Below are positions 362 to 60,283 of a stretch of DNA of 64,000 nucleotides, in pieces. The stretch is from Octopus vulgaris. Lineage: Eukaryota. The DNA is taken from contig OX597817.1 in the NCBI GenBank assembly GCA_951406725.2, positions 176,452,001 through 176,516,000 on the forward strand, written 5' to 3'. The translations under genes and the position numbers were made by a program. Position 1 is the first letter of the stretch. Every line of letters begins with the position of its first letter. The notes beneath the pieces were generated by a model. It had not been told where the DNA came from and did not search any database. It saw only the letters and a program-made list of their open reading frames with translations.

Positions 362-1327
362 ATTTTAAAAATTGAGGGAGATAAATTAATATTAATTTTA
401 ATATCAATTTAAAACCAGTAGTCCAGCATTCAAAAAATCTGAGGAGTCAGAGAAAATTCAAGTATATGTGTATATTGGCAGGGCTGGCCTGCTAGGTAGC
501 CGGACAGAATACTAGAAGAAGATCATCAACGATCAAACTACAAGGGAAATTCTCTAGAGGAAGAATTCAGCGAACACCAGAACCAACTTTGGCGGGCAGG
601 ACATATGAAAAATTAAATAAATAACAGACTTAAATGCATACCTCGGTTTCGGTCTTAACAAAAGAATTACTTGCATAATTCAAGTGTCCGTGACTTCTTC
701 AGTACATTCGGTCCTCGTGATGCAAACCGCAAGACTAACCCCAGCTCTCTGTGTCAAGACAGACACGTGCTTAGTCTTACTGATTACATCGGGAATAAAA
801 TTTCAAATGTCTTGGTTCTGGCTCGCTGAGAGACTCCTGAAGCGAAGGACTGCAGTGAATAATTCACTGCGGATAGTGCTTACAACTAGGGAACGTATTT
901 ATTTAAATATTTAAAAATTAAGGGAGATAAATGAATATTAATTTTAATATCAATTTAAAACCAGTAGTCCAGCATTCAAAAAATCTGAGGAGTCAGAGAA
1001 AATTCAAATATATGTGTATATTGGCAGGGCTGGCCTCAGGTAGCCGGCCAGAATACTAGAAGAAGATCATCAACGATCAAACTACAAGGGAAATTCTCTA
1101 GAGGAAGAATTCAGTGTTCGCGGAATTCTTCCTCTAGAGAATTTCCCTTGTAGTTTGATCGTTGATGATCTTCTTCTAGTATTCTGGCCGGCTACCTAGC
1201 AGGCCAGCCCTGCCAATATACACATATATTTGAATTTTCTCTGACTCCTCAGATTTTTTGAATGCTGGACTACTGGTTTTAAATTGATATTAAAATTAAT
1301 ATTAATTTATCTCCCTCAATTTTTAAA
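362..1327 (-). mobile_element. Non-coding hammerhead-bearing element (PLE-derived/retrozyme-like): ~547-bp monomer, partial direct repeat and inverted arm
   Basis: 367-572 is repeated at 914-1113, and 1123-1327 is the reverse complement of 362-567. (TA)n lies on both sides, with an HHR at 633-708. Confidence 0.8.
633..708 (-). ncRNA. Type I hammerhead ribozyme motif
   Basis: Minus strand: aatgta CTGAAGA agtc...gacc GAAAC cgag GTA tgcatt (stem I, conserved core, stem II, short stem III, GUA cleavage triplet). Confidence 0.75.
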
Positions 1328-1345
1328 TATATATATATATATATA

Positions 1346-2295
1346 CATATCTCTCTGACTTCACACATCAGCAAATTCATGGAACGGATAGTCAGAAAGA
1401 GACTAATCGCATTCCTTGAGGAAAATAACTTGCTGAGTAATACCTAGCATGGTTTCCGACCAGGTAGGAGCTGCCTGACCCAGCTCTTACAGGATACACC
1501 GGTCCACAGGGAATTTCAATCCCAGAGCCTAAGTCTGTGAGGGACCTGGGTATCGACATGAGTGATGATACCTCTTTCCAAGTGCACATTACCAGGATGG
1601 CGACAAAGTGCAGACGACTGGCTGGATGGATCCTTAGAACATTCAGAACAAGAGATAAGAAAACCATGATGGTTCTCTGGCGGACTTTCGTCCTCAGCCG
1701 CCTGGATTACTGCTCACAGCTATGGTCATCCACCAGTGTAAAGTAAACAGCGGATCTTTAAGCAATCCAGAGAAGATTCACAAAGAAGATCATCTCTTTG
1801 CAACAGTTCAGCTACTGGGAAAGGTTGAAACAGCTAAGACTCTACTCCCTGGAGAGAAGACGGGAGAGGTATGCAGTAATATATGTCTGGAAGATCCTGG
1901 AAAGAATTGTGCCAAATTTTGGCATTGTAAGCTACACCAATGCTAGAACGGGACGACACTGCATAGTGCCAAAGATCCCAGCAATGACATCACTCTTCAG
2001 GACCAGCTTCTGCAACAGCCTGGGTTTCAAGGGCTTTTTAATATTCTCCCAAAGAGTCTGAGAAACTTGCACAAAGTGGATGTAGCAGTTTTTAAATCAA
2101 ACCTGGACATCTTCCTGTCAAGAGTCCCAGATGAATCTACCTCATGGCAGGAGGTGCAAATGAGAGTAGCTATATCAAACTCCATTCTTCATCAAGTGCC
2201 ACATATTAGACGAGGTTCGTCGTAATAACAGTGTAGTACAAGACGGGGGTGCATCAGCATGGCCGCAGCTCTGAGCTGAAACTAGAAAAAAAAAT
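1346..2295 (+). mobile_element. CR1-group LINE 3' portion (family A) with an internal deletion, decayed
   Basis: ORFs 1537-1746 and 1798-2061 (RDLGIDMS..., LYSLERRRERY). The sequence jumps near 1492. The 3' motif CATGGCC-hairpin-GAAAC is followed by an A-tail. Confidence 0.88.
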
Positions 2296-2741
2296 ACACA
2301 CATATATATATATATATATATATAATTTTCACTATGGAGAGACTTTTTGAATACTGTGTATATATATATATATACATATAAATTTCACTGTGGAGACTTT
2401 TTGAACAATGTGTGTATATATATATATAAAAAATTCATTGTGGAGAAACTTTTTGAACACTGTATATACATATATATATATATATATATATATATATAAA
2501 ATTCACTGTGGAGAGACCTTTGAACACTGTATATATATATATATATATATATATAATAATAAATATTAGGGAATAAATCCAAATTTACAGGAAAAAATCA
2601 GATTTAGGATTGGATCCAATTTTAAAGTAAAATATAATATAATATTAATTAGAGACAAAACCACTATTATGCAAATCAAACAAAGAAAGACTTAATCCAA
2701 TACATAAAAAATTTTATATAAATTAAATATAATTAAGATAT

Positions 2742-59200: not shown

Positions 59201-59632
59201 TGTTAGTAGTCCTCTGATGTTCAGTAGGAGCATCGCGGTGAGGTGTATGCTGTTGCCGGTGGTGTCCACCTTGGGTCTATTTGCTGTGGTGGTCTTGTGA
59301 ACTGCGGGTAGTCCCATCTGCGAGCTTGAGTTTGATGGAGCCAGGTTAGCTGCTGTACAATCTTTTGTGCCATGCACAAAAAAGATTCTTGTTCAGCAGC
59401 TGCCCTTTCAACAACATGTTGGCGGTTTGTGGCACGCACCACATCTGCGTACCTCCGCTTTGGGACAGGTGGTGCGTGGTCCAGCCCTTTTCCTTTCGGT
59501 GGTTGGTTTCTGCGGCAGGGTCCCGGATGTGCAAAACGGCAGCCTGCACCTTCCTCTCCATGCCAGCAGGCACCTCTCAGGTAGAACCTACACACCCGTG
59601 TGCGCTGCTTGTTTCCATCCTTTTTGTATATG
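56208..59632 (-). mobile_element. CR1-group LINE (family E), decayed, with a CCCH ORF1 remnant
   Basis: ORFs 59221-59748, 58826-59377, 58268-58807, 57113-58231, 56827-57189 and 56316-56867. (AAAATC)n tail. Confidence 0.92.
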
Positions 59633-59977
59633 GATATATATATATAAAATTCTCTGTGGAGAGACTCTTTGAACACTGTATATATATATATATATATATA
59701 TATACATATGTATATATAAAATTCACTGTGGAGAGACTTTTTGAACACTGTCTATATGTATATATATATACATATATATATATATATATATATATATATA
59801 TATATATATATATATATATATATATATATATAATTCACTCTGGAGAGACTTTTTGAACACTGTGCATATATATAAACATATAATTCACTGTGGAGAGACT
59901 TTTTGAACGCTGTGTATATGTATATATATATTTATAAAATGCACTGTTGAGAGACTTATTGAACACTGTATATATAT

Positions 59978-60283
59978 GCCGCGTGCATACGTGCATATGT
60001 ATTTATGTATGGACGTTCGTATATGTAAGTATATCGTTTGTTCTGCATATATATATCTGTATTTATGTACTCTTGATATATTCAACCGATGACGGTAAAG
60101 CTTATTTAAAGCAAAACCAGAAATCCTGGATCTTGAATTATTAAATAATTTTTGCTTGTATATTTTGTCCCTCTGTCTTATCTCATGGTGCGATACGAAC
60201 ACTTAACGTGGTTTTTATAGTCAGAGTTTCGACTGCTATTTCGGCATGTTGGTGTCTCTTAGACACCCTCATTTTTAATTATA
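59978..60283 (+). mobile_element. Short non-coding element with a hammerhead-like motif (60080-60138, U4>C)
   Basis: attcaa CCGATGA cggt...acca GAAA tcc t gga TC ttgaat. The 3' GACTGCTATTTC is shared with the 53076 family. Confidence 0.65.

Follow-up and report, generated by a model that had tools for sequence, protein, structure and literature searches.

A 64,000-nucleotide stretch of the Octopus vulgaris genome (contig OX597817.1, positions 176,452,001 to 176,516,000; hereafter the window) carries type I hammerhead ribozyme (HHR) motifs belonging to 11 repeat families. The contig is 176.7 Mb long and ends about 220 kb away from the window, in an assembly of 2.80 Gb and 227 contigs. It is made up of nested insertions into (TA)n: long interspersed nuclear elements (LINEs) with an apurinic/apyrimidinic (AP) endonuclease, which we take to be CR1/L2-like and RTE, pieces of Penelope-like elements (PLEs) and a local 35-bp minisatellite. 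Six families (H1, H4, H6, H8, H10 and H11) are non-coding head-to-tail repeats, likely copied in trans by the reverse transcriptase (RT) and endonuclease (EN) of a PLE, and five (H2, H3, H5, H7 and H9) are truncated ends of protein-coding PLEs; we put the probability of this combined reading at about 0.72.

The families are labelled by their motif positions: H1 (633), H2 (2742/7744), H3 (9544/10861), H4 (11365/11859), H5 (19840), H6 (28626), H7 (34630/39106/52753), H8 (53264), H9 (36006), H10 (54765) and H11 (60080). HHR residues follow the customary numbering. A descriptor of the type I motif (core CUGANGA..GAAA, stems I-III, helix II of at most 100 nt) yields 11 strict-core motifs with a score of at least 9, against a mean of 0.03 and a maximum of 1 in 40 dinucleotide block shuffles and none in the reversed window. 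A relaxed core adds 9544 and 10861 (U3-A8 type) and 60080 (CCGAUGA); relaxed-core matches at 61062 and 62198 were treated as chance, relaxed shuffles giving 0.4 at a score of at least 11. The remaining sites are variants or mutated copies. By eye, the 7744 motif has a stem I mismatch, 36006 combines a U3-A8 core with a helix II of 2 bp, 39106 is near-intact and 52753 is mutated in stem III; 19840 has GCAA in place of GAAA, as do other copies, and the first stem I pair is broken at 54765 and intact in 16 of 21 genome contexts of H10. Core variants comprise U3-A8 (H3, H9), U4C (H11) and A13C (H5), the last of which is, from its sequence, likely dead. The initial annotation, made from the letters alone, had placed about 11 HHR families at these positions, and the named sites stand; it had overlooked an inverted H7 motif at 34338 and a direct H5 copy at about 12930-12975 on the minus strand. 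The Rfam search it recommended did not recover them: at E<=1 no hammerhead family is among the 103 matches in the window, 101 of which are to miRNA models, a miss likely due to the long helix II and short helix I. Helix II regions span 13-68 nt across motifs, compensatory changes occur by eye in stems I-III among related families, and stem III is palindromic or almost so in all motifs, the form expected to cleave as dimers (review PMC6765202; Cervera 2014).

The six non-coding families occupy the following positions.

364..1327, minus strand: H1 non-coding element with a 546-bp unit, present as 1.4 direct units and an inverted arm at 1114-1327 (self-BLAST, genome copies)
632..709, minus strand: H1 type I HHR, strict core, GUA site, 45-nt helix II region
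366..521, minus strand: H1 two-end RNA module, with a second copy at 1170-1324, plus strand (nhmmer)
917-1081: H1 match to the covariance model, E=0.044
11230..12123, minus strand: H4 non-coding element, 1.8 units of 495 bp; module at 11630-11788
11365-11427 and 11859-11922, minus strand: H4 HHRs, strict core
28502..30897, minus strand: H6 non-coding element, 491-bp unit, 3.2 units direct and 1.7 inverted, with four whole HHRs and one partial
28626-28732, 29117-29225 and 29610-29716, minus strand, and 30562-30668, plus strand: H6 HHRs, strict core
28895-29051, 29388-29544, 29879-30035, 30243-30399 and 30734-30890: H6 module copies
53078..53786, minus strand: H8 non-coding element, 583-bp unit; module at 53559-53723
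53264-53353, minus strand: H8 HHR, strict core
54594..54899, minus strand: H10 non-coding element, 5'-truncated, 404-bp unit, one 3' end, without module; HHR at 54765-54838
59978..60280, plus strand: H11 non-coding element, 5'-truncated, 480-bp unit, ending at the short terminus; HHR at 60080-60138, CCGAUGA

These families are dispersed, recent, (TA)n-inserted non-LTR (long terminal repeat) retrozymes. Natural head-to-tail junctions define units of 546 (H1), 495 (H4), 491 (H6), 583-584 (H8), 404 (H10) and 480 bp (H11), each with a type I HHR; such tandem non-coding units are absent from H2, H3, H5, H7 and H9. First-look searches of the octopus genome returned 1455 candidates for H1, 1059 for H4, 1376 for H6, 2339 for H8, 793 for H10 and 1425 for H11; 40 candidates were scored per family, and loci were fetched for H1 (25), H4 (25), H6 (30), H8 (25), H10 (20) and H11 (20). 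The best copies are 92-100% identical and spread over many contigs. GC content is 0.33-0.39 in the five monomers measured, and in dimers of the five families tested (H1, H4, H6, H10, H11) stop-to-stop frames reach at most 67-127 aa. All six keep a C3-G8 core, with helix II regions of 27-68 nt. The 3' ends adjoin TA runs in nearly all copies displayed, and the 5' ends vary. The initial description of a diverse set of (TA)n-inserted, non-autonomous PLE-type or retrozyme elements is supported, with six complete non-coding tandem units.

Such repeats could in principle have arisen from PLE ends as satellites and multiplied by recombination at the DNA level, with the ribozymes as inactive relics. 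Long arrays do exist (at least 10 units in H8 and at least 12 in H6), most motifs fold poorly as monomers, and the available text of Li 2026 considers how a PLE end might be amplified locally in tandem and reports cleavage in one of nine elements. The copies nevertheless lie scattered in flanks of their own, with the 3' end constant and the 5' end varying; the commonest 5'-core patterns retain CUGANGA or CCGAUGA, and the stem changes in related families look compensatory, which makes a satellite origin quite improbable. Mobilisation as short interspersed nuclear elements (SINEs) by the abundant AP-endonuclease LINEs, which also sit in (TA)n, is less credible still. Such LINEs fill much of the window, and in H10 the 3' end is single and inversions are absent; no tRNA gene is found in the window, however, no B box in the six monomers (one A-box-like match occurs, in H10) and no poly(A) tail at the ends read, and the two fixed ends and 3'-outward inverted pairs described below are PLE features.

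A third alternative holds that the six families are truncated pseudo-LTRs (pLTRs) of autonomous PLEs whose long copies escaped sampling. H7 proved to be exactly such an end, and only 20-30 loci were read per family out of 793-2339 candidates. In all six families, though, consecutive units are joined directly, without an open reading frame (ORF) between them. A PLE frame in sense within 350 nt upstream is found in none of the 67 direct flanks; the H7 control, with its EN about 600 nt upstream, is also blank at this distance. Upstream sequence is shared with another locus in 10 of the 67 direct 5' flanks, and the nine displayed flanks of these 10 loci are explained by duplicated loci or common repeats, mostly across the TA run and with differing breakpoints; the H7 control shares its own upstream sequence in 8 of 11. 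We regard the pLTR explanation as unlikely for the six. The initial annotation had counted seven families without RT or EN and had named, as one outcome that would overturn its reading, that each family is just the truncated 3' end of an already annotated autonomous PLE. The count is six: H7 is the end of an autonomous PLE, H2, H3, H5 and H9 are also ends of coding PLEs, and the six others probably are not.

The evidence for a PLE mechanism comes from the ends. H1, H4, H6, H8 and H11 have two fixed 3' ends, A and B, separated by a tail of 108, 98, 105, 104 and 92 nt, respectively; in the Hydra-type PLEs the tail is 67 nt in a young family described below (ends at +89 and +156), 88 nt in H2 and 154 nt in H7. 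In the PLE studied by Frangieh 2024 (PMC11167929), the tail is the gap between two RT start sites, a property called unique to PLEs, and the protein, a predicted dimer, extends the two strands of the target. Two fixed ends in non-coding families are therefore a signature of the PLE mechanism. The same five families show the arrangement of a partial tandem with an inverted 5'-truncated copy and an optional tail between the fixed ends, and this, together with units of 404-584 bp, bears out the tandem and inverted PLE architecture noticed at first. Among 48 inverted insertions, a count that omits loci running off the fetched stretch, one duplicate row and one unclassified row, 43 pair A with B, none A with A, one B with B, and four have one other end. 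The A+B pairing departs from 50:50 with P=3e-12 (43 of 44). The accessible text of the PLE and retrozyme papers compared gave no published count of one-A-one-B pairing.

The same elements might instead acquire the inverted arm as a fold-back, self-primed copy of the first cDNA, with the second end made by endonuclease resolution. Arkhipova 2013 argues for self-priming from palindromic junctions and Craig 2021 (PMC8557442) ascribes the tail to EN-mediated resolution; both arms of one insertion (L005) break at the same base, and by length 27 of 44 A+B rows fit fold-back copying as well, which tells against two primings. In the other 17 of 44, plain copying of one arm could not have produced the second without a later loss of hundreds of bases from one of them, and a later deletion at the palindrome centre could mimic these rows. 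In vitro, both ends of the tail map to RT start sites (Frangieh 2024). The rows without an arm of template length therefore favour two primings on a multimeric or circular RNA, and we hold fold-back copying to be possible, if doubtful.

The sole B+B insertion is the H1 element of the window (locus L031), in which about 150 bp of LINE flank is duplicated in inverted orientation (185-348 and 1342-1495); it looks like a true fold-back event. Among direct insertions of H1, H4, H8 and H10, several 5' ends lie within about 25 nt of A or B, leaving a near-exact unit length (7 of 19 in H10). These copies may reflect a single pass round a circle or, alternatively, the selection of full-length hits.

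Folding models suggest that H1, H4, H6, H8 and H11 also share a predicted RNA structure around A and B. Whole monomers barely align, yet the 150-180 nt around the two ends fold alike, with z-scores of -2.1 to -4.4 (alignment of 20 sequences). In the 5' part, a closing helix surrounds a hairpin, CC(C)U, site A within an AU-rich stretch or hairpin, and a further hairpin; in the 3' part a conserved linker leads to a long hairpin, which CC(C)U and then B follow. A covariance model built from nine H8-like sequences alone matches H6 (E=3e-7), H4 (2e-4) and H1 (0.044), as well as relatives of H11. Within the nine sequences 91% of cells pair, and double changes occur in 7 of 29 pairs, against 3.1 in shuffles (1 in 500 as high) and 1-4 in slid controls, a difference that relatedness can inflate. 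An nhmmer profile finds nine insertions in 480 kb of random DNA and none in the reversed control. The CCU motif is not enriched upstream of 527 random TA junctions.

It is a tentative proposal, for which we claim somewhat less than an even chance, that the five families and some 50,000 related insertions (extrapolated from the nine in 480 kb) form a superfamily whose fold serves as a landing pad for the PLE RT, a dimer of which would prime on both strands. The landing pad would consist of a multiway junction and of a long hairpin, with CC(C)U and then an AU-rich start site after each, and it would play the part that the template boundary has in telomerase RNA. Craig 2021 reports that the tail often appears at one end only; if the proposal is true, priming from one site per strand accounts for this asymmetry in inverted PLE insertions. 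A shared fold around fixed ends would also make template choice by PLEs testable.

We envisage that a multimeric or circular transcript would be bound by the PLE protein at the conserved fold. The protein, probably as a dimer, would nick both strands of the (TA)n target, and the two cDNAs would start at different sites, one at A and the other 92-108 nt downstream at B, in a form of twin priming. Joined head to head, the two 5'-truncated cDNAs would give an inverted insertion whose ends are short on one side and long on the other, and priming from one side would give a direct insertion. The ribozyme would cut multimers to monomers or circles and would not be required for insertion. Breakpoints at the predicted cut offer only a hint of its use: 4 of 38 arms in H4 (1.0 expected) and 3 of 17 in H6 (0.45 expected) have their 5' breakpoint between -4 and +8 nt from the cut. 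H6 also occurs in the contigs of all four runs guessed to be RNA, in one of them as a closed 490-nt loop, where circle and tandem, and RNA and DNA, are indistinguishable.

Several observations weigh against this account. The loci sampled are the best-scoring copies, a choice that favours long ones. H10 has partial tandems only, with one 3' end, no inverted insertion among 19 and no module by nhmmer or the covariance model, and its link to PLEs is weaker. The covariance model matched no autonomous pLTR included (93 sources, 893 kb). Breakpoints at the predicted cut number 0 of 34 in H1, 1 of 37 in H8, 1 of 21 in H10 and 0 of 26 in H11, and the pooled count of 9 of 173 against 4.5 expected gives P=0.04, uncorrected and with an analyst-chosen interval. 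The minimum-energy monomer takes the HHR shape only for H6 among eight motifs, with a mismatch at the base of helix II in H1, H2 and H11 and a bulge in H4, and eight of nine retrozymes tested by Li 2026 (bioRxiv 10.64898/2026.07.22.740005) did not cleave. Local alignment of the six monomers to three Hydra-type and three Neptune-type 3' ends gives z-scores of at most 2.9. Among the profile matches downstream of an EN (L205, L210, L314, L318 and L201), the two read, L205 and L210, are separate insertions; L205, beside the window, was considered as a partner and dismissed as a separate small insertion.

The initial proposal also called for RT-encoding partners, and blastn, local alignment with shuffles, nhmmer and the covariance model found none for the six families among the PLEs sampled, namely three Hydra-type and a few Neptune-type families. 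PLE diversity is under-sampled here, because the single-protein search returned one very young Hydra family only. We give the Hydra clade an even chance of supplying the partner, a group of another or unsampled kind an appreciable but smaller one, and Neptune a slight one. Hydra fits better than Neptune because of the C3-G8 core, the long tails and the (TA)n targeting, and the CCGAUGA core of H11 recurs as CCGAAGA in the young Hydra family. The partners first suggested were Neptune- or Naiad-like, which the evidence disfavours: the Neptune-type families examined (H3, H5, H9 and a 781-aa family) have a U3-A8 core and tails of about 50 nt where read, against C3-G8 and 92-108 nt in the non-coding families, and cephalopod Naiads were inactivated long ago (Craig 2021). 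A Naiad-type N-terminal GIY-YIG occurs in none of the long frames read, the EN being always C-terminal.

The ends of coding PLEs in the window are as follows.

2555..7890, minus strand: H2, 5'-truncated Hydra-clade-like PLE, with an inverted 3' arm at 6849-7890, plus strand
5892..6887, minus strand: H2 frame of linker and GIY-YIG endonuclease, CxCx5C and CxxC..CxH, without Pfam match
2742..2787, minus strand: H2 HHR, strict core; second copy at 7744-7789, plus strand, with the stem I mismatch
9404..10997, minus strand: H3, truncated Neptune-type PLE with inverted arm; EN frame at 10220-10678, PF01541
9544..9584, minus strand: H3 HHR, U3-A8 core, with a copy at 10861-10901, plus strand; cleavage-site register uncertain
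12612..17340, minus strand: H5, broken Neptune-type PLE, EN at 13854-14522, RT at 14755-15852, ORF1 pieces at 16135-17142; degenerate HHR at about 12930-12975, minus strand
18495-20188: H5 inverted 3' arms; degenerate HHR at about 19835-19875, plus strand
34130..34780: H7a, two pLTR arms from an autonomous Hydra-like PLE, paired in inverted orientation; HHRs, strict core, at 34338-34427, minus strand, and 34629-34718, plus strand
34918..36333, minus strand: H9, Neptune-type pLTR; U3-A8 HHR at about 36004-36045, then ORF1 of the next unit at 34883-35908
38440..39250, plus strand: H7b, whole 3' untranslated region (UTR)/pLTR of a Hydra-like PLE, beginning at the EN stop codon; HHR at 39105-39194
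52542..53048, plus strand: H7c, pLTR with 150-nt tail and inverted arm; HHR at 52750-52838, stem III mutated

Judged from protein motifs, H2 and H7 are Hydra-clade-like PLEs and H3, H5 and H9 are Neptune-type. The H2 endonuclease has close relatives in the genome in frames of up to 864 aa. Full copies carry RT+EN frames of 840-862 aa with Hydra-clade motifs, and the one compared with the copy in the window shows 83% identity; the 841-aa parent has an RWK-like motif, DKT, CxCx5C, CxxC..CxH, a C-terminal GIY-YIG, an HHR and a (TA)n insertion. A first reading of H2 as Nematis was dropped on the Hydra criteria of Craig 2021. The three H7 insertions are 93-98% identical to the 3' ends of autonomous RT+EN elements, in whose copies the EN lies about 600 nt upstream in frames of up to 899-908 aa; a non-coding H7 is thereby ruled out. 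The 899-908-aa parent has RW, DKT and CxxC..CxH. Both parents spell the RW[KL] motif in their own way (RIKWK in H2, RIRWL in H7) and have DKT, no GxKF and a C-terminal EN with CxxC and CxH. The CxCx5C linker is present in the H2 parent and absent from that of H7, which is why the latter is termed Hydra-like. The ends of the H7 parent adjoin (TA)n although the Zn-finger-like linker is absent (L319, L318), which bears on the idea that this linker drives microsatellite targeting.

The H2 element has a 3.3-kb 3' UTR with internal repeats (2560-5890 in the window; loci L246-L249), a poly-Asn linker between RT thumb and EN, and a unit of about 6.3 kb, twice that of the published Hydra elements (<3 kb in the accessible text of Craig 2021, which includes Hydra-1_Obim). 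N-rich inserts are known in rotifer Penelopes (Arkhipova 2013). The tails of 67-154 nt likewise exceed the 30-40 bp published for the clade. The young autonomous Hydra family (L199, L330-L359) shows 99-100% identity in 150 of 150 scored matches, with many open 717-aa frames, a tandem unit of about 2590 bp and an HHR core of CCGAAGA; by eye, it has an RMRWKAFFFD stretch in common with Hydra-1_Obim. It is a good candidate for biochemistry. A search with the L199 protein gave 650 homologues, hardly any of them bearing a name.

H3 and H5 contain a Neptune-type EN or RT+EN inside the window, and RT or EN similarity occurs in the fetched flank at 17 of 19 other loci of H9. Their ENs are about 50-55% identical to the 781-aa family or to one another; the copies of H3 and H5 seen elsewhere in the genome were incidental sightings rather than the yield of a genome-wide search. 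The motifs GxKF, DKG, a CX2-5CxxC linker (here CX4CxxC) and GIY-YIG at the C-terminus (PF01541 EN), shared with Neptune PLEs, were read on the 781-aa relative, which has many open frames. We presume these families to be Neptune rather than Nematis. A linker of the CX2-5CxxC type is also found in Nematis (Craig 2021), and a U3-A8 covariant has been reported for Schistosoma Cercyon elements (Cervera 2014). The H5 HHR has GCAA instead of GAAA in every copy seen (19835-19875; L187, L202, L127), yet the family has spread.

Besides the U3-A8 core, the elements differ from Neptune PLEs in a separate upstream ORF1 of 330-380 aa (L201, L200, L209, L210), which overlaps the 781-aa RT+EN frame at a conserved T-TTT-TTA heptamer, kept also in H5 at about 16160-16175 on the minus strand. 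By the usual rules for slippery heptamers, a -1 frameshift here is possible from the sequence; an ATG belonging to ORF2 lies about 30 nt further along, and strong structure downstream of the overlap is not predicted.

HHR motifs of this kind are abundant throughout the genome. In the same scan the window has 12 motifs of seven families, against 14 motifs from 12 insertions in 48 stretches of 10 kb taken at random, and each shuffle yields 1-2. The enrichment of the window is about 4-fold (P=0.001, uncorrected for its choice on account of these motifs), and its TA fraction is 0.075 against a random mean of 0.038. The sample extrapolates to about 70,000 motifs genome-wide (31,000-118,000). About 1.9 Mb of fetched non-random DNA contains 39 motif clusters, 17 of them seen once; the window is rich in motifs, but the diversity first noted for this locus is a feature of the whole genome. 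Subtelomeric enrichment is not apparent in a small sample (5 motifs, in 2 of 10 contig-end 10-kb stretches, against 14 in 48 interior ones). Around 70,000 long-helix-II hammerheads in dozens of families would rank among the larger HHR loads described, which reach 120,000 in axolotl, more than 6000 in coral and about 5000 in mussel (Cervera 2020, PMC7229834).

The elements are of known kinds, PLE pLTRs and non-LTR retrozymes, and a PLE origin of the latter has already been proposed (Li 2026; Cervera 2020). Like the non-LTR retrozymes described by Cervera & de la Pena 2020 (PMC7229834) and Li, Clavereau & Pollet 2026, the six families are non-coding tandem units with one type I HHR each that co-occur with PLEs, GC content is low in the five measured, and as circles the units are predicted to be highly paired (60-67%, z -2.8 to -8.0). 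They differ in length (404-584 bp against about 170-400 nt in invertebrates), in (TA)n insertion, and in the PLE inverted structures with two fixed ends in five of six, which the accessible parts of those papers do not describe; host pLTR homology, found in 21 of 57 Xenopus families (Li 2026), was not found here. Chlamys elements such as MRC1 (Craig 2021) are likewise non-coding, multicopy, head-to-tail and PLE-type, but resemble their autonomous partners at the 3' end and mostly lack HHRs, whereas HHRs are present here and no partner homology was found. The Schistosoma SM-alpha-type SINE with an HHR is tRNA-derived; here there is no tRNA gene in the window and no B box in the six monomers. 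Poseidon PAc of the green anole (Frangieh 2024) also has two internal RT starts, an AT-rich target and a protein-assisted HHR; it starts in an AC-rich stem-loop within the ORF, and the ends of the families here are in or next to AU-rich hairpins after CC(C)U in a non-coding RNA.

The scale in a cephalopod, the one-A-one-B count and the shared fold around start sites were not found in print; the literature search, which covered few subscription journals, found no cephalopod retrozyme papers. The available text of a 2026 octopus repeat annotation (PMC13282606) lists 893 recently active 'unclassified SINE' families and does not use the words 'hammerhead' or 'ribozyme'. The link between PLEs and retrozymes has so far consisted of co-occurrence and pLTR similarity (Li 2026; Cervera 2020), and the two-start signature in non-coding retrozymes adds evidence for trans-mobilisation that is mechanistic and independent of these. 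For the in vitro assay used by Frangieh 2024, the fold, about 160 nt long, and the very young autonomous Hydra and Neptune families with open frames offer substrates that are at hand.

The unit of about 35 bp (core TTCACTGTGGAGAGAC) forms an alternating series with (TA)n runs, 129 times in all, dispersed over window positions 2303-61120. It occurs 6-10 times per 10 kb in three neighbouring stretches and is absent from 480 kb of random and 100 kb of contig-end samples; it is a local minisatellite supplying TA targets. The region 62400-64000 on the minus strand, running on into locus L204, resembles the pol region of an LTR retrotransposon (integrase, RNase H), presumably Ty3/gypsy. A GC-rich 67-bp tandem repeat of about 10 copies lies at 42913-43573. 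At 55600-55780, a near-perfect palindrome of about 180 bp with TA runs on either side possibly represents the two arms of another small inverted insertion.

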